Below, in pieces: positions 16,155 through 64,000 of a stretch of 64,000 nucleotides of DNA. Under the pieces are notes generated by a model. That model was not told the origin of the DNA and ran no database searches. It was given only the letters and a program-made list of their open reading frames with translations. The DNA lies in sequence record OR780565.1. One strand, written 5' to 3'. The stretch's first letter is position 1. Each line of letters begins with the position of its first letter. This DNA is from Escherichia phage DCP2. Made by a program: the position numbers and the translations under genes.

Positions 16155-16981
16155 TGGCTATTTTTCAAATAATTAATGAAAGCACTCCCCAAGTTCCAAA
16201 GGTTAAGCAATCATTAAACGAAAAGAAATGGATTCAGATAGGTCTTGAATACAAAAAGGCCAAAGCAAAAGGAATGACAGGAAAGCAATTTGCTGAAGAA
16301 AGAGGAATCAAATACTCTACGTTTACTTCGGCAATGTCAAAATATGCTTCAGGAATTAAAACAGCTGAAAAGATTCAAAATCTTGAATCAAAACCAATGA
16401 ATAAACTCAATAAGCAAGAAAGACAACTGCTTATGATAAATTCATTCAGACAAACATTGCGTGATAAAATTCGTAATGAAGGCGCAGCAATTAATAATAA
16501 AACCAGAAAGTGGTTTGCTGAAACTATTAAGCAGGTAAAAGGACATAAAGTTGTTCGCCCGCAGCCGGGACGAATATATGCTTTTGCTTATGATGCTAAA
16601 CACAAGGAAACTCTTCCTTATTGGGATAAATTTCCTTTGATAATTTACCTTGGTTTAGGTAAACATAATTTAATGTACGGATTGAACTTGCACTATATTC
16701 CACCTAAAGCTCGTCAACAGTTTCTAGAAGAGCTTTTAAAGCAATATGCAAATACACCTACTATTACTAATAAAACGAAATTGAAAATTGATTGGAGTCA
16801 AGTGAAAGGATTTAGGGGTGCAGACCAAATGATTAAGGCATATATACCTGGTAATATTATGGGTAGCCTAGTTGAAATCGCCCCGAAAGACTGGGCGAAC
16901 GTTGTGTTAATGCCACTCCAAAGCTTCTACTCCAAAGGAAAACGTTTCTCTGCAAACAAAGTTTGGAGCAATGTACGATGA
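16154..16981 (+). CDS. 2: DNA end protector protein gp2
   Basis: 275-aa basic ORF; size and position match T4 gp2. Confidence 0.75.
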
Positions 16982-17637
16982 ATTATGAAAAAATTTATAA
17001 TTCACTAATTGATAGGGCTCGCAATAGAGCCCTTACTGGATATAAAGAAAGACATCATATTATTCCGAAATGTTTAGGCGGTAGTAATGATGCTTCTAAC
17101 TTGGTTGATTTAACTCCAGAAGAGCATTATGTTGCACATCAACTATTAGTAAAAATACACCCAAATTCTTTAAAATTATCTTATGCGGCCATAAAAATGA
17201 CGGTTTCAACTAAATATGTTAGGAGAAATAATAAAGTTTATGGTTGGTTAAAAAGAAAACATGCAAATAATATTTCAAATACACAAACTGGACGAAAATA
17301 TTATAATAATGGTAAAAGATGTATAAAATTGCATGATGGAGATATAATTCCTGAGGGATTTATTTTAGGAAGAGGATGGAGTCCGACACAAGGCACAACT
17401 CATTCTAGAAAAAATGATACATTTAAAAACAAAAAGCTTCAATCTGCTTTAGCTAATAAACGGTGGGAAAAAGAAAAGAAAATAATGTTAGATAACTTTG
17501 GAGTTAGCACTATTGATGAAGCAAAGAAAATTGTTCTTGATTTTAAATCAACTTGTCATCCAAGATATTGGCGAAAGCCAACTTTAGAAAAATTTCCATT
17601 TATGACTTCTGCTCGTTTAAGAAGTCTAATAAATTAA
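16963..17637 (+). mobile_element. Free-standing HNH homing endonuclease-like gene between genes 2 and 3
   Basis: HNH motif ERHHIIPKCLGGSNDASNLVDLTPEEHYVAH; overlaps the 3' end of gene 2. Confidence 0.7.
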
Positions 17638-19049: not shown

Positions 19050-19734
<685 letters not shown>

Positions 19735-21042: not shown

Positions 21043-21068
21043 GGGCTCTTTCCTGAGAGCCTTTGTTA
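21043..21068 (+). terminator. Rho-independent terminator-like hairpin
   Basis: ggctct-ttcctg-agagcc stem-loop followed by tttgtt. Confidence 0.4.
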
Positions 21069-21086
21069 ATAATTGGGAATCATATT

Positions 21087-21695
21087 ATGGATACTAAATT
21101 AGCTGAAATTTTTGAAGGAAAACATCCAAATTTTAGTACAGGAAAGCTGAAAGACAAAATAATAAAAGAAAATATTTTTCCATATGAGTGTGCAATTTGT
21201 AAAATTTCAAAATGGCAAAATAAGCATATTGTTCTGCAATTAGACCATATTGATGGAAATAACAAAAATCATCTTAAATCAAATTTAAGATTATTATGTC
21301 CAAATTGCCATTCGCAAACTGATACTTTTGCTGGTAAAAATATTAAAAATAATAAAAAGCGTTATAATGTTAGTGATGAAGAAATTTTAAACGCATTATT
21401 AAATTCGGCTACTATATCATCTGCAATTACTTCATTAGGTTTAAGTAAAGGCGGAAACTATAAAAGATTCATTAAAATTGCTAATGATAATAAATTATAT
21501 CATTTACTGGTAAATATTAATGAAAAGATTTTAACTGATGAAATTTACGAAGAATTAGTTAAAATCGATTATTCTAAATTTGGATGGGTTAGTAAAGCTG
21601 CTAAAATAATAGGTATAAGCCCACAAAAAGCTAGAAAATGGATAGAACGAAAATGTCCAGAATTGATAGAACAATCTTTTTCACGTAATAAATAA
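21087..21695 (+). mobile_element. Free-standing HNH homing endonuclease-like gene next to the tRNA array
   Basis: Cys-box plus HNH motif: CAICKI...LDHIDGNNKNH...NLRLLCPNCH. Confidence 0.7.
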
Positions 21696-21701
21696 TATAG
21701 A

Positions 21702-21788
21702 GCGAGAATGGTCAAATTGGTAAAGGCACAGCACTTAAAATGCTGCGGAATGATTTCCTTGTGGGTTCGAGTCCCACTTCTCGCACCA
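21702..21788 (+). tRNA. tRNA-Leu (anticodon TAA), CCA encoded
   Basis: Acceptor GCGAGAA/TTCTCGC, anticodon loop CTTAAAA, long variable arm, T-arm GGTTCGAGTCC. Confidence 0.85.
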
Positions 21789-21793
21789 AATTT

Positions 21794-21867
<74 letters not shown>

Positions 21868-21876
21868 ATTTAATTT

Positions 21877-21950
21877 ACTCCGTGTAGCTCAGTTTGGTAG
21901 AGCGCCTGATTTGGGATCAGGAGGTCCAAGGTTCAAATCCTTGTATGGAG
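21877..21950 (+). tRNA. tRNA-Pro (anticodon TGG)
   Basis: Anticodon stem-loop CCTGA-TTTGGGA-TCAGG, T-arm GGTTCAAATCC. Confidence 0.8.
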
Positions 21951-21952
21951 AC

Positions 21953-22043
21953 TGGAGGCGTGGCAGAGTGGTTTAATGCACCGGTCTTGAAAACCGGCAG
22001 TCGCTCCGGCGACTCATAGGTTCAAATCCTATCGCCTCCGCCA
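21953..22043 (+). tRNA. tRNA-Ser (anticodon TGA), CCA encoded
   Basis: Anticodon stem-loop CCGGT-CTTGAAA-ACCGG, long variable arm, T-arm GGTTCAAATCC. Confidence 0.85.
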
Positions 22044-22048
22044 GTTTT

Positions 22049-22124
22049 GCTGATTTAGCTCAGTAGGTAGAGCAACTCACTTGTAATGAGAAGGTCGGCG
22101 GTTCGATTCCGTCAATCAGCACCA
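22049..22124 (+). tRNA. tRNA-Thr (anticodon TGT), CCA encoded
   Basis: Acceptor GCTGATT/AATCAGC, anticodon loop CTTGTAA, T-arm GGTTCGATTCC. Confidence 0.85.
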
Positions 22125-22125
22125 A

Positions 22126-22200
22126 GGCCCTGTAGCTGGAAGGTTCAAGCAAGCGACTCATAATCGCCAGATGGTGGTTCAATTCCACCCAGGGCCACCA
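22126..22200 (+). tRNA. tRNA with anticodon CAT (Ile by analogy with T4, or Met), CCA encoded
   Basis: Acceptor GGCCCTG/CAGGGCC, anticodon loop CTCATAA, T-arm GGTTCAATTCC. Confidence 0.8.
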
Positions 22201-22209
22201 AATTAATTT

Positions 22210-22296
22210 GGGGAGTTATCCCGTAGAGGTAGCGGTGTGGACTGTAAATCCATTGTCATTGCGACTCGGGTGGTTCGACTCCACCACTCCCCACCA
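22210..22296 (+). tRNA. tRNA-Tyr (anticodon GTA), CCA encoded
   Basis: Acceptor GGGGAGT/ACTCCCC, anticodon loop CTGTAAA, long variable arm, T-arm GGTTCGACTCC. Confidence 0.8.
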
Positions 22297-22300
22297 ATTT

Positions 22301-22375
22301 GGATGTGTAGCTCAATGGCAGAGCGATCGCCTGTTAAGCGATTGGTTATAGGTTCGAATCCTATCACGTCCGCCA
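22301..22375 (+). tRNA. tRNA-Asn (anticodon GTT), CCA encoded
   Basis: Anticodon stem-loop TCGC-CTGTTAA-GCGA, T-arm GGTTCGAATCC. Confidence 0.85.
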
Positions 22376-22489
22376 AATTTGTGACAACTGTCACATTAAT
22401 ATCTACTTGACGCGATTATAGGGGTTGAACTGATCACTCTTCTCTTAATTTCGTGTGAAGACATCTTGATTGTTGGAGTAGGTATTAAT

Positions 22490-22565
22490 GTGGCCGTAGT
22501 TCAGTTGGTAGAACTCGAGATTGTGATTCTCGTAGTCATGGGTTCGACTCCCATCGGTCACCCCA
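22490..22565 (+). tRNA. tRNA-His (anticodon GTG), CCA encoded
   Basis: Extra 5' G pairing with discriminator C, anticodon stem-loop CGAGA-TTGTGAT-TCTCG, T-arm GGTTCGACTCC. Confidence 0.8.
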
Positions 22566-22569
22566 ATTA

Positions 22570-22645
22570 CGGGGCATAGCTCAGAAGGAAGAGCAAGGAC
22601 CTTCTAAGTCCTAGGTCGTAGGTTCGATCCCTACTGCCTCGACCA
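22570..22645 (+). tRNA. tRNA-Arg (anticodon TCT), CCA encoded
   Basis: Anticodon stem-loop GGAC-CTTCTAA-GTCC, T-arm GGTTCGATCCC. Confidence 0.85.
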
Positions 22646-27109: not shown

Positions 27110-27594
27110 TTTTAAAAACTCGCTGGTATGATTTAGATGATGGAGATGATGGCATTCCAGTTGATAGAGTTGATTGGAATGGCTGTTCCGAAGATATGAA
27201 AAATTTGTTGATTAGGGAGTTTAGAATGGGATATCAAGTAGTTAAGCCATCTACTGTAACAGACGATAAATTCGTTTGTATTCAAAACGGTCGTGCTAAG
27301 TTAACGAACGCTGAATGGTTTACGGATAAGAATATGCTTCTGTGGTATATCATTAGTCTTCCTGCGTCATCATTCGTATTTTACTTCTTTGGAAAAAATC
27401 CAATGGACAGAATAGGAGATTGGGCTCTTTGTACTATATTTGTTAATATTTTTACTGCAGCAATATTATCCGGAATATGGTGTGTGTTCATTGAAATGCC
27501 ATGGCGGTTACGCAGACAACAAAAGATTTTTGATGAAAAGAAATATGCTCAAAATTTAAATAACTTTATCACTGAATGCAGGAAATTAAAATGA
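27106..27594 (+). CDS. Small membrane protein (family member)
   Basis: 162 aa; hydrophobic helices; C-terminal NFITECRKLK; ATGA coupling to nudE. Confidence 0.5.
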   Translation: MILKTRWYDLDDGDDGIPVDRVDWNGCSEDMKNLLIREFRMGYQVVKPSTVTDDKFVCIQNGRAKLTNAEWFTDKNMLLWYIISLPASSFVFYFFGKNPMDRIGDWALCTIFVNIFTAAILSGIWCVFIEMPWRLRRQQKIFDEKKYAQNLNNFITECRKLK

Positions 27595-28031
27595 AAACAT
27601 TATCAGCTGGTATTATCTTTATGACAGAAGATAAAGATTTATTTATGGGACGAGTTACCGGTTCTCGTAAACCTGGAATGATTGCACATCGCTGGGATAT
27701 TCCAAAGGGGCGTGTAGAAAGTTCTGATTTGAATGCACTGGAAGCTGCAAAAAGAGAATGCTCAGAAGAGACTGGTTTTATCGATTATAATCCAGACCTT
27801 CTAGAAGACTTAGGTGTATTTAAATATTCTAGTAATAAAGACTTACAGTTATTTTATTATACGATTCCAGTAGAGCATGAGATGTTTAGAAATTGCCATT
27901 GCGAGTCTTATTTTGAAAATAAAGATGGCGTTATGATTCCAGAGATGGATGCTTTTGCTCTTATTCCTCGTACTCAGTGGCAATATGTGATGGGTCCTTC
28001 ACTTTACCGAATAATGAACAGCCTCTTTTAA
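27591..28031 (+). CDS. nudE: Nudix hydrolase NudE
   Basis: Nudix box GRVESSDLNALEAAKRECSEETGF; position immediately upstream of e. Confidence 0.85.
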   Translation: MKTLSAGIIFMTEDKDLFMGRVTGSRKPGMIAHRWDIPKGRVESSDLNALEAAKRECSEETGFIDYNPDLLEDLGVFKYSSNKDLQLFYYTIPVEHEMFRNCHCESYFENKDGVMIPEMDAFALIPRTQWQYVMGPSLYRIMNSLF

Positions 28032-28834
<803 letters not shown>

Positions 28835-28835
28835 T

Positions 28836-28866
28836 GTTTACTTCCTCCAAGGACTTTGATACTATA
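28836..28866 (+). promoter_or_regulatory. T4-type early promoter upstream of denV
   Basis: gtttac -35 and tgatactatac -10. Confidence 0.55.
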
Positions 28867-28892
28867 CATTCATCAACTACTTGGAGGAAATT

Positions 28893-29309
28893 ATGACTCG
28901 TATCAATTTAACACTTGTTTCTGAACTGACCGATCAACATCTTATGGCTGAGTATCGTGAATTGCCACGTGTTTTTGGTATAGTTCGTAAGCATGTGGCA
29001 AACGGTAAGCGCGCTAAAGATTTTAAAATATCTTCTAAATTTATTTTAGGTTCTGGTCATGTTACTTTCTTTTACGATAAGTTAGAATTTTTGCGAAAGC
29101 GTCAATCGGACATTATAACGGAATGCTTAAAACGCGGGTTCAGTATAAAAGATACTGAAGTTCCTGACATCAGCGATATTCCAGTAGAATGGAAAAATGA
29201 TTATAATCCATGCAAATCAGCTATTAAGTTGAGTCAACAACGACTCGATGAAAAAATTTTAATGAAGCCACACTGGTATAAGTATTACGGCAAAAATATT
29301 TACATTTAA
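28893..29309 (+). CDS. denV: Endonuclease V (pyrimidine-dimer DNA glycosylase)
   Basis: 138 aa from [29 protein letters not shown]; matches my recollection of T4 endo V. Confidence 0.9.
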
Positions 29310-29454
29310 ATAACATGGGAATAACCTGGACCTCATGATTCTATGAGGGATTCCCGCCAACCTGTAATAAGGTCGAGCCCAAGTGCGGTAATGGGTAAAT
29401 ACAGAAATGGACAATTCATGCGCCATGGAATGGCCCAAATTTAGAGAGAATAAA

Positions 29455-29994
29455 ATGAGAACATTTTTAACTGGTCCTTATCTATCCCTGATGAATGCTT
29501 TTACACACCATTCTGATGCTAGAGTAGAAGAAATTTGTAAAAACGAATATATCCCACCATTTGAAGACTTACTTAAGCAGTATTGCACACTTCGACTAGA
29601 CGGTGGACGTCAATCCGGTAAATCAACTGCTGTGACTAACTTTGCTGCTAATTGGCTGTATGACGGTGGAACAGTTATTGTTCTTTCTAATACTTCAGCT
29701 TACGCTAAAATTTCTGCAGGCCACATTAAAAAAGAATTTTCTCGTTATTCTAGTGATGATATTCGATTCCGCTTATTTACTGATTCTGTCCGTAGTTTTA
29801 TCGGTAATAAAGGAAGCAAGTTCAGAGGTTTATCTCTTTCGCGAATTTTGTATATAATCGATGAGCCTGTTAAATCTCCTGATATGGATAAAATTTACGA
29901 TATTCATATTGAAACTGTGCAACACTGCTGTAATAGTAAATGCTGCATTGGCGGTATTACTCGTCCGCAGTTTTTCGTAATTGGAATGCAATGA
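29455..29994 (+). CDS. Small P-loop NTPase-like protein
   Basis: Walker A GGRQSGKST, Walker B-like LYIIDEP; internal Met with SD gagaga. Confidence 0.5.
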   Translation: MRTFLTGPYLSLMNAFTHHSDARVEEICKNEYIPPFEDLLKQYCTLRLDGGRQSGKSTAVTNFAANWLYDGGTVIVLSNTSAYAKISAGHIKKEFSRYSSDDIRFRLFTDSVRSFIGNKGSKFRGLSLSRILYIIDEPVKSPDMDKIYDIHIETVQHCCNSKCCIGGITRPQFFVIGMQ

Positions 29995-30320
29995 TGACAG
30001 ATACGCAACTTTTCGAATATCTTTATTTTTCGCCAAAAACTATTAAAAATAAATTGGTGAATCATTTTGAAATTTTGGCAAATAACAACGTCTTGAGCGA
30101 ATTTTATCCCAAGCAATACAAATTACAAAAAGGTGTATTCAAAGGATGCAGAGTTTTGTGCACTGCTCCTAATGCAAGATTAATGAATAAAATTCCATAT
30201 TTTACCATGGAATTTATTGATGGACCATTTAAAGGATTAATTACTCAAAGTTTAATGGCATATGATTCTGAGCCATTTTTAATTAAAGAACAGTCTTGGA
30301 TAAATTTATTTTCTAATTGA
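29991..30320 (+). CDS. Hypothetical protein
   Basis: About 109-aa ORF, ATGA-coupled to the upstream gene. Confidence 0.4.
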   Translation: MMTDTQLFEYLYFSPKTIKNKLVNHFEILANNNVLSEFYPKQYKLQKGVFKGCRVLCTAPNARLMNKIPYFTMEFIDGPFKGLITQSLMAYDSEPFLIKEQSWINLFSN

Positions 30321-30326
30321 GGTTAT

Positions 30327-30689
30327 ATGAAAGCATATCAAATTCTTGAAGGCACGCATAAAGGTACTATTTATTTTGAAGATGGTATTCAAGCACGAAT
30401 TATTGTCTCTAAAACCTTTAAAGAGGACTCTTTTGTAGACCCGGAAATTTTTTACGGTTTGCATGCCCGCGAAATTGAAATTGAAACACAACCTACAGTT
30501 AAAATTGAAGGTGGTCAGCACCTGAACGTTAACGTTCTGCGTCGCGAAACTCTGGAAGATGCAGTTAAGCATCCGGAAAAATATCCGCAGCTGACCATCC
30601 GTGTATCCGGTTATGCAGTTCGCTTTAACTCTCTGACTCCGGAACAGCAGCGCGACGTTATCGCTCGTACCTTTACTGAGAGCTTGTAA
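30327..30689 (+). CDS. Autonomous glycyl-radical cofactor (GrcA/YfiD-like)
   Basis: C-terminal [29 protein letters not shown] glycyl-radical motif; 3' half has host-like GC and codon usage. Confidence 0.8.
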
Positions 30690-30910
30690 TGGCAAAGATA
30701 ATTATTGAAGGTTCTGAAGATGTGCTAAATGCTTTCGCCGAATGGTTTAGTAATTCAGGCGAACAGCAATTTAATGAAGCATGGAACATGGGTGATATTA
30801 ATGGAATTTATCCTACGACAGAAATTTCTGTTCAGGGATATGGCATTCATGAACCTATTCGTTTAGTTGAATATGATTTGGGAACAGGTGAGGAAGTAAA
30901 ATATGATTGA
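30689..30910 (+). CDS. Hypothetical protein
   Basis: 73-aa acidic ORF, coupled to neighbours. Confidence 0.4.
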   Translation: MAKIIIEGSEDVLNAFAEWFSNSGEQQFNEAWNMGDINGIYPTTEISVQGYGIHEPIRLVEYDLGTGEEVKYD

Positions 30911-31169
30911 AGACATTAAAGGTTATAAGCCACATACTGAAGAGAAAATCGGTAAAGTGAATGCTATCAAAGACGCTGAAGTTCGTTTAGGACTTATCTT
31001 TGATGCTTTATACGATGAATTCTGGGAAGCACTAGATAATTGTGAAGACTGTGAATTCGCAAAGAATTATTCCGAAAGTCTCGATCAGTTAACTATTGCT
31101 AAAACGAAGCTTAAAGAAGCCAGTATGTGGGCTTGTCGTGCTGTGTTCCAACCAGAGGAAAAATATTAA
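30903..31169 (+). CDS. Hypothetical protein in the vs.4 position (possible Acb2-family candidate)
   Basis: 88-aa ORF, fifth ORF after denV and second before regB; assignment by position only. Confidence 0.4.
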
Positions 31170-31447
31170 TGGCTCAATTAAGCGCAGGGTTTGGTTATGA
31201 GTATTATACTGCCCCTCGTCGTGTATCTGTCGCTCCTAAGAAAATTCAAAGTCTTGATGACTTCCAAGAAGTAGTCCGTAAAGCTTTCCAGGACTACGCA
31301 CGTTATCTTAAAGAAGATTCACAGGACTGTCTCGAAGAAGATGAAATTGCTTACTATGAGCAGCGTCTTGAACAGCTTAAAAACCTACATGAGGTTCGTG
31401 CAGAAGTTACAAAGTCTATGAATAAATTGATTAGATTTAAAGAATAA
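31169..31447 (+). CDS. Hypothetical protein
   Basis: ORF from internal Met ([13 protein letters not shown]...), overlapping the upstream stop. Confidence 0.45.
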
Positions 31448-31449
31448 CT

Positions 31450-31479
31450 GTTTACTTTTCCTCTTGACTGTGGTATAAT
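31450..31479 (+). promoter_or_regulatory. T4-type early promoter upstream of regB
   Basis: gtttac -35 and tggtataat extended -10. Confidence 0.65.
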
Positions 31480-31506
31480 TTTTCTATCAGTTAAGAGGAG
31501 AATAAC

Positions 31507-31968
31507 ATGACTATCAACACAGAAGTTTTTATCCGTCGAAATAAGCTTCGTCGTCACTTTGAGTCGGAGTTTCGTCAAATTAACAATGAGATTCGTGAGG
31601 CATCAAAAGCAGCAGGGGTCTCATCGTTTCATCTAAAATATTCTCAGCATCTTCTTGATCGTGCAATTCAACGGGAGATTGATGAGACATATGTTTTTGA
31701 ATTATTCCATAAAATAAAAGACCATGTTTTAGAAGTTAATGAATTCCTGAGTATGCCTCCGCGTCCTGACATTGACGAGGATTTTATTGATGGGGTTGAA
31801 TATCGTCCTGGGCGTTTAGAAATCACCGATGGAAATCTTTGGCTTGGATTTACAGTTTGTAAACCTAATGCGAAGTTCAAAGACCCGTCACTTCAGTGCA
31901 GGATGGCAATTATCAATAGTCGTCGTTTACCAGGAAAGGCTTCTAAAGCAGTAATTAAAACTCAATGA
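31507..31968 (+). CDS. regB: Endoribonuclease RegB
   Basis: 153 aa, same length as T4 RegB; synteny vs-regB-vs.x. Confidence 0.8.
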   Translation: MTINTEVFIRRNKLRRHFESEFRQINNEIREASKAAGVSSFHLKYSQHLLDRAIQREIDETYVFELFHKIKDHVLEVNEFLSMPPRPDIDEDFIDGVEYRPGRLEITDGNLWLGFTVCKPNAKFKDPSLQCRMAIINSRRLPGKASKAVIKTQ

Positions 31969-62714: not shown

Positions 62715-64000
62715 ATGAAAGAATTTTATATCTCTATTGAAACAGTCGGAAATAGCATTGTTGAACGTTATATTGATGAAAATGGAAAGGAACGTACTCG
62801 CGAAGTAGAATATCTTCCGACTATGTTTAGACATTGTAAGGAAGAATCAAAATACAAAGACATTTACGGTAAAAACTGCGCTCCTCAAAAATTTCCATCA
62901 ATGAAAGATGCACGAGATTGGATGAAGCGAATGGAAGACATCGGTCTCGAAGCTCTTGGTATGAACGATTTTAAACTCGCTTATATCAGTGATACATATG
63001 GTTCAGAAATTGTTTATGACCGAAAATTTGTTCGTGTAGCTAACTGTGACATTGAGGTTACTGGCGATAAATTTCCTGACCCAATGAAAGCAGAATATGA
63101 AATTGATGCTATCACTCATTATGATTCAATTGACGACCGTTTTTACGTATTTGATTTGTTGAATTCAATGTACGGTTCAGTATCAAAATGGGATGCAAAG
63201 TTAGCTGCTAAGCTTGACTGTGAAGGTGGTGATGAAGTTCCTCAAGAAATTCTTGACCGAGTAATTTATATGCCATTCGATAATGAGCGTGATATGCTCA
63301 TGGAATATATTAATCTCTGGGAACAGAAACGACCTGCTATTTTTACTGGTTGGAATATTGAGGGATTTGACGTTCCGTATATCATGAATCGTGTTAAAAT
63401 GGTTCTCGGTGAACGTAGTATGAAACGCTTCTCTCCAATCGGTCGAGTAAAATCTAAACTAATTCAAAATATGTACGGTAGCAAAGAAATTTATTCTATT
63501 GATGGCGTATCTATTCTTGATTATTTAGATTTGTACAAAAAATTCGCATTTACTAATTTGCCATCATTCTCTTTGGAATCAGTTGCTCAGCACGAAACCA
63601 AAAAAGGTAAATTGCCGTACGATGGTCCTATTAATAAACTTCGTGAGACTAATCATCAACGATACATTAGTTATAACATCATTGACGTAGAATCAGTTCA
63701 AGCAATTGATAAAATTCGTGGGTTTATCGATCTAGTTTTAAGTATGTCTTATTACGCTAAAATGCCTTTTTCTGGTGTAATGAGTCCTATTAAAACTTGG
63801 GATGCTATTATTTTTAACTCACTGAAAGGTGAACATAAGGTTATTCCTCAACAAGGTTCGCACGTTAAACAGAGTTTTCCAGGTGCATTTGTATTTGAAC
63901 CTAAACCGATTGCTCGTCGATACATTATGAGTTTTGACTTGACGTCTCTGTATCCTAGCATTATTCGTCAGGTTAACATTAGTCCTGAGACTATTCGTGG
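62715..64000 (+). CDS. 43: DNA polymerase gp43, N-terminal part (truncated by window end)
   Basis: ORF starts MKEFYISIETVGNSIVERYIDENGKERTRE and includes the exonuclease FDIE motif region; runs off the window. Confidence 0.9.
   Translation, partial: MKEFYISIETVGNSIVERYIDENGKERTREVEYLPTMFRHCKEESKYKDIYGKNCAPQKFPSMKDARDWMKRMEDIGLEALGMNDFKLAYISDTYGSEIVYDRKFVRVANCDIEVTGDKFPDPMKAEYEIDAITHYDSIDDRFYVFDLLNSMYGSVSKWDAKLAAKLDCEGGDEVPQEILDRVIYMPFDNERDMLMEYINLWEQKRPAIFTGWNIEGFDVPYIMNRVKMVLGERSMKRFSPIGRVKSKLIQNMYGSKEIYSIDGVSILDYLDLYKKFAFTNLPSFSLESVAQHETKKGKLPYDGPINKLRETNHQRYISYNIIDVESVQAIDKIRGFIDLVLSMSYYAKMPFSGVMSPIKTWDAIIFNSLKGEHKVIPQQGSHVKQSFPGAFVFEPKPIARRYIMSFDLTSLYPSIIRQVNISPETIR

Follow-up and report, generated by a model that had tools for sequence, protein, structure and literature searches.

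The 88-codon open reading frame (ORF) at 30903-31169 on the plus strand of the window, which denotes the whole 64,000-nucleotide stretch of Escherichia phage DCP2 DNA that was analysed (sequence record OR780565.1), is identified from its sequence as vs.4/acb2 of a Tequatrovirus, a T4-like phage. The encoded protein is most likely a hexameric sponge that would hold three cyclic dinucleotides (CDNs) and blunt CBASS. The explanation as a whole, namely vs.4/acb2 of a T4-like phage encoding a hexameric, CDN-only, anti-CBASS sponge, is judged very probable; within it we infer the hexamer, the binding, the expression and the phenotype. The Vs.4 finding is already known and does not depart from published work. 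Its value lies mainly in correct annotation: naming the gene as acb2 is useful because most deposited T4-like genomes label it 'hypothetical protein'.

A phmmer comparison of the ORF product with all PDB chains identified entry 7UQ2, 'Vs.4', as a match with 87 of 88 residues identical and an E value of 4.7e-57. The entries 8H2J and 8IXZ, which contain the Acb2 protein of phage PaMx33, gave weaker full-length matches (E about 0.05). The T4 reference Vs.4 (NP_049728) likewise comprises 88 amino acids, and alignment with the window product revealed A57S as the sole change. The product scores 71.3 bits against the Pfam family PF24729 (Acb2_Tad1_hairpin), for which the gathering cutoff is 27 bits, and matches phrog_717 with an E value of 5.1e-32. 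Jenson et al. assigned the Vs.4 homologues to PHROG 717 (PMC10097602). At the nucleotide level the window gene and T4 vs.4 differ at 14 positions over 267 nt; 12 of these are synonymous third-position changes and the remaining two both fall in codon 57. The occurrence of 12 synonymous codon changes and a single non-synonymous one indicates that vs.4 is translated and under purifying selection. Homologues of vs.4 are present in 1231 phage records, one of which, that of Shigella phage sb1, encodes the identical protein; sb1 is outside the 12 best records listed for a 25-kb nucleotide query with the window.

The neighbouring genes were mapped onto the annotated T4 reference by pairwise alignment (Table 1), and each of them best-matches the T4 protein of its slot. 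The order denV, vs.8, vs.7, vs.6, vs.5, vs.4, vs.3, regB matches that of T4, and the same layout occurs in Yersinia phage ZN18. The genes vs.1, vs and tk.4 lie 3' of regB. A 3.2-kb query around the ORF matched 899 phage records, the best of which was ZN18 with 98.2% identity, and the 25-kb query yielded best identities of 97.7-98.5% with Tequatrovirus genomes, none of them identical to the window. The preliminary description had placed the ORF in the vs.4 slot by gene order and had proposed, without verification, that it encodes the Acb2 homologue. Both the slot and the assignment are borne out, the former by the neighbours and the latter by the near-identity to 7UQ2, the PF24729 and PHROG 717 matches and the fold match given below. 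The same description had suggested an alignment with T4 Vs.4/Acb2 and an inspection of the ligand-binding residues; the alignment is the one reported above, similarity to Vs.4/Acb2 being readily detected, and the residues are all present. Its count of exactly six ORFs between denV and regB holds for genes with T4 counterparts but not for all ORFs, as many more short ones occur in other frames and on the minus strand.

Table 1 Features of the vs.4/acb2 region of the window and their T4 counterparts.
Feature	Position	Strand	Observation
nudE	27576-28031		140/151 identical to T4
e (lysozyme)	28068-28556		151/161 identical to T4
denV	28881-29309		106/137 identical to T4
vs.8	29407-29994	+	173/194 identical to T4
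vs.7	29991-30320	+	107/109 identical to T4
vs.6	30327-30689	+	GrcA-like, Pfam Gly_radical; 118/120 identical to T4
vs.5	30689-30910	+	T4 match confined to the first 17 aa
GAGG, Shine-Dalgarno-like	30890-30893	+	9 nt 5' of the vs.4 ATG; sequence read directly: ggtGAGGaagtaaaatATG
vs.4/acb2 CDS	30903-31169	+	ATG...TAA ORF, 88 codons plus TAA stop
vs.5/vs.4 overlap, 8 nt	30903-30910	+	TGA stop of vs.5 at 30908-30910
Codon Y8, pi-stacking on cGAMP bases	30924-30926	+	Present, invariant in 114/114; role from PMC10097602
Codon K23	30969-30971	+	Present, invariant; aligns with K26 of PaMx33 Acb2 (8H2J)
Codon 57	31071-31073	+	TCC (Ser), T4 GCT (Ala); within helix 2 of the model
Codons 74-82 (S74, A77, R79, F82)	31122-31148	+	C-terminal portion of the ligand pocket and hexamer interface; all present
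TAATG junction	31167-31171	+	vs.4 stop 31167-31169 shares one base with vs.3 start 31169-31171
vs.3	31169-31447	+	89/92 identical to T4
regB	31507-31968		152/153 identical to T4

The T4 reference vs.5 encodes 58 amino acids and ends 36 nt before vs.4, whereas vs.5 of the window is an intact 73-amino acid ORF that runs into vs.4 by 8 nt. The window vs.5 product matches phrog_1986 over its full length and has no Pfam match. The two vs.5 proteins share only their first 17 amino acids, as a 1-nt indel follows codon 17 (GCCGAATGG here, G-CGAGTGG in T4), and it is the T4 reference copy that looks like the frameshifted one. The vs.8 product, 195 amino acids long in the window, aligns with the 219-amino acid T4 Vs.8 from T4 residue 26 only, its N-terminus being shorter and different, and it has a weak terminase-large-subunit-like PHROG match (phrog_2, E 5e-6). 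The denV and vs.8 genes are separated by 97 nt in the window and by 26 nt in T4. Numerous related phages match the segment 28800-32000 in two pieces, with an indel of about 490 bp relative to the window. The gap between e and denV is occupied by a single plus-strand ORF at 28538-28834 (98 amino acids, or 93 from its ATG) in the slot of T4 ipIII/ipII. At its N-terminus the product is similar to T4 internal proteins, and the ZN18 equivalent is annotated 'internal head protein'; the ORF product has no real similarity to T4 IPII/IPIII and no Pfam match. The locus looks like a variable cassette for internal head proteins.

The residues that mediate ligand binding and assembly in T4 Vs.4 are known from Jenson et al. 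(2023, PMC10097602). The T4 protein has a Kd of about 30 nM for 3',3'-cGAMP, which it does not cleave, and it inhibits the activation of CBASS effectors. Its hexamer carries three ligand molecules, each enclosed by a pair of protomers. Base stacking is provided by Y8 and F82, and hydrogen bonds or salt bridges by Y8, H11, K23 and R79, the K23 contact being a salt bridge with the cGAMP phosphate. Binding is abolished by Y8A, and S74N disturbs ligand contacts. T12 is a helix cap, and L29, F33, A66, A73 and A77 contribute to the hexamer interface (PMC10097602). The window protein has all 13 residues to which the T4 work gives a part in hexamer assembly, helix capping or ligand contact, namely Y8, H11, T12, K23, L29, F33, L60, A66, A73, S74, A77, R79 and F82. 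Their conservation was assessed across 114 aligned cluster representatives retrieved by a search of 5.8 billion proteins. The ligand-contact set Y8, H11, K23, S74, R79 and F82 is invariant across all 114 homologues, as is A66. T12, L29, A73 and A77 are conserved in at least 90% of them (A77 in 112/114), and F33 is replaced by Leu or Ile in a third of the family members. Conservation is poor towards the middle of the protein, and position 57, which falls there, ranks with the least conserved sites: it has Leu in 35 homologues, His in 35, Met in 11, Tyr in 8, Ser, Pro and Asn in 4 each and Ala in 3. Because the position varies so widely across the family, A57S is expected to be neutral. T4 Vs.4 and the window protein differ at this one residue, in a variable stretch of helix 2; their ligand-contact and hexamer-interface residues, their length, the slot between vs.5 and vs.3 and the TAATG junction are the same.

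In the mechanism that we propose, the product would be made in infection and would fold as a helical hairpin that bears a short extension at either terminus. Protomers would then assemble into an interlocked hexamer with three pockets, each located between two protomers and accommodating one cyclic dinucleotide. The expected ligands are 3',3'-cGAMP and related CDNs produced by CD-NTases; Y8 and F82 would stack on the bases whereas H11, K23, S74 and R79 would touch the phosphate-ribose ring. Sequestration of the signal without degradation would leave CBASS effectors such as CapV inactive, and the phage would complete replication in hosts whose CBASS output lacks the boost from Cap2 conjugation. 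Cap2-mediated cGAS conjugation, which raises cGAMP output, is a host counter to the sponge (PMC10097602).

The sponge can also become a liability to the phage. The Panoptes system senses the sponge through depletion of the decoy 2',3'-c-di-AMP, and T4 escapes Panoptes via acb2 loss-of-function mutations, which include frameshifts, stops, deletions and binding-site changes such as F82C. The window allele is intact, and therefore sensitivity to sponge-sensing defences such as Panoptes is predicted. The existence of this escape route, together with the scarcity of the S57 allele (the identical protein in a single record), could be taken to mean that the allele is impaired or drifting, the sponge having been inactivated by A57S or by loss of expression, for example through selection to escape Panoptes. 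We consider this very unlikely. The reading frame is intact and the binding and interface residues are all present, unlike in the reported Panoptes escapers; position 57 tolerates the eight different residues listed above, Ser included; and the codon changes, 12 synonymous to one non-synonymous, indicate purifying selection. A subtler effect, in which A57S or the intact overlapping vs.5 alters the ligand range, hexamer stability or dosage of Acb2, and hence its detectability by Panoptes, is a similarly long shot. If true, the window would carry a natural allele in the arms race between sponge and decoy.

The functional sponge that we favour is consistent with the predicted structure. An AlphaFold2 model of the window Vs.4, built on the 114 homologues, has a mean pLDDT of 87.4 and two long helices spanning residues 13-45 and 50-81. 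In this prediction the protein adopts the protomer fold of the family, a pair of long antiparallel helices flanked by short extensions at both termini. A Foldseek search of the PDB with the model returned chains of 7UQ2 as the best matches (E 1e-11, TM 0.79), followed by the Acb2 entries 8H2X and 8H2J. The N-terminus of the model is of low confidence, with pLDDT below 50 for residues 1-4. It contains no strand as long as three residues; position 8 alone is assigned, as an isolated bridge.

A known relative with a different ligand range is PaMx33 Acb2 (p26; 8H2J, 8H2X, 8IXZ; Huiting et al. 2023; Cao et al., PMC10312549). It belongs to the same Pfam family and shares the helical-hairpin fold (TM about 0.73-0.76), its Y11 and K26 align with Y8 and K23 of the window protein, and published work on it describes the hexamer with three CDNs that is predicted for the window protein. 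The two sequences are only about 21-24% identical. A second pocket of PaMx33 Acb2, which depends on R67 and T74, binds two cyclic trinucleotides (Cao et al., PMC10312549). T4 Acb2, in which D61 and T68 correspond to these two residues, binds dinucleotides; neither cA3 nor cAAG is bound, and the D61R mutant still does not bind cA3 (PMC10312549). The window Vs.4 carries D61 and T68 as does T4 Acb2 and is thus predicted to bind dinucleotides only, and not cA3 or cAAG. Cyclic trinucleotide binding is probably absent. As the Arg at the R67-equivalent position is missing, the dual-pocket PaMx33/JBD67 subtype was discarded and the window protein was filed with the CDN-only T4 subtype.

Thoeris signals are sequestered by Tad1, Tad2 and Acb2_43, which have the sponge logic in common with Acb2, and Tad1 contains the hairpin domain that gave PF24729 its name. 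However, the ligands of these proteins (gcADPR, 3'cADPR) differ from those predicted for the window Vs.4, and their pocket residues are different. An extra N-terminal β strand (β1) and different contacts underlie the Thoeris-type specificity of Acb2_43. The diversity of the Acb2 family, in which some members bind 3'cADPR and not cGAMP and others bind cA3 in a second pocket, is what would commend a sponge for another ligand, either 3'cADPR as for Acb2_43 or trinucleotides as for PaMx33 Acb2, in place of cGAMP and other CDNs. This is most improbable for a protein that is 99% identical to T4 Acb2, whose measured spectrum comprises CDNs and not cA3 or cAAG, and in which the CDN-binding residues are preserved. 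At the R67-equivalent position it has the Asp found in T4, where even the change to Arg did not confer cA3 binding, and the model, with its low-confidence N-terminus, gives no support for a β1 strand of the Acb2_43 type. Both the trinucleotide-binding and the Thoeris-sponge readings were rejected on these residue and structural grounds, in favour of the CDN-only sponge.

The gene is compactly embedded between its neighbours, and its 1-nt overlap with vs.3 is also annotated in T4 (the end of vs.3 and the beginning of vs.4 are both at position 63078). The GAGG motif upstream of the start codon is the putative ribosome-binding site of vs.4. A mechanically generated ORF list contains no minus-strand ORF of at least 30 amino acids overlapping 30903-31169. 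Two other plus-strand readings that overlap vs.4 were set aside: a 34-amino acid out-of-frame ORF at 31096-31200 and a GTG-extended version of vs.3 at 31127-31447, the T4 counterpart of which begins at the ATG at 31169. Apart from its short length nothing suggests that vs.4 itself is a chance or untranslated ORF, a notion of negligible probability given the near-identity to a crystallised and genetically validated protein, the codon-position-biased substitutions, the conservation of the gene in more than 1200 phage genomes and the Shine-Dalgarno-like GAGG 9 nt before the start.

As for the vs.4/acb2 gene proper, we can only infer the timing and level of its expression. A scan of the region for sigma-70-like consensus sequences found 12 sites, with 11.5 expected from shuffled sequences, and revealed no promoter specifically upstream of vs.4. 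The late-promoter motif TATAAATA is absent from 28800-31600, and a search for MotA boxes yielded no strict match and two relaxed TGCTTNA matches, both inside coding sequence. Co-transcription of vs.4 with its neighbours, and translational coupling to them, are probable from its place in the vs.8-vs.3 block and its overlaps on either side. The best sigma-70-like site of the region and the only strong one, at 31451-31479 on the plus strand (TTTACT, a 17-nt spacer and TATAAT with an extended -10 TG), is directly upstream of regB and is assigned to that gene. The ribosome-binding region of regB contains GGAG at 31497, which fits the GGAG cleavage specificity of RegB given in the T4 annotation note.

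The window also contains the gene for Acb1 (T4 gp57B), which acts on the same target pathway. This gene, 57B, is located at 19276-19734 on the plus strand, and its product is identical to T4 57B in 152 of 152 residues, with a score of 202.7 bits for Pfam PF23474 and an E value of 4e-62 for the match to PDB entry 7T26. As an enzyme of the 2H-phosphodiesterase type, Acb1 degrades cyclic nucleotides; its fold and mechanism are unrelated to those of the Acb2 sponge. The Acb1 and Acb2 genes are about 11 kb apart and, both being present as in T4, constitute the full known anti-CBASS pair of T4. With Acb1 and Acb2 together, the phage is therefore predicted to resist cGAMP/CDN-based CBASS as T4 does.

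An Rfam scan of the whole window at gathering thresholds identified a tRNA cluster as the only structured RNAs. The cluster comprises ten tRNA genes on the plus strand at 21702-22645, in the order Leu-taa, Gly-tcc, Pro-tgg, Ser-tga, Thr-tgt, Met/Ile-cat, Tyr-gta, Asn-gtt, His-gtg and Arg-tct. Of these, Tyr-gta is barely above the Rfam threshold (30.3 bits vs 29). Two plus-strand ORFs, at 16963-17637 (224 amino acids) and 21063-21695 (210 amino acids), exhibit weak HNH-endonuclease matches below the Pfam cutoff and could be homing endonucleases that have inserted between conserved genes. The second of these HNH-like ORFs lies directly upstream of the tRNA cluster.
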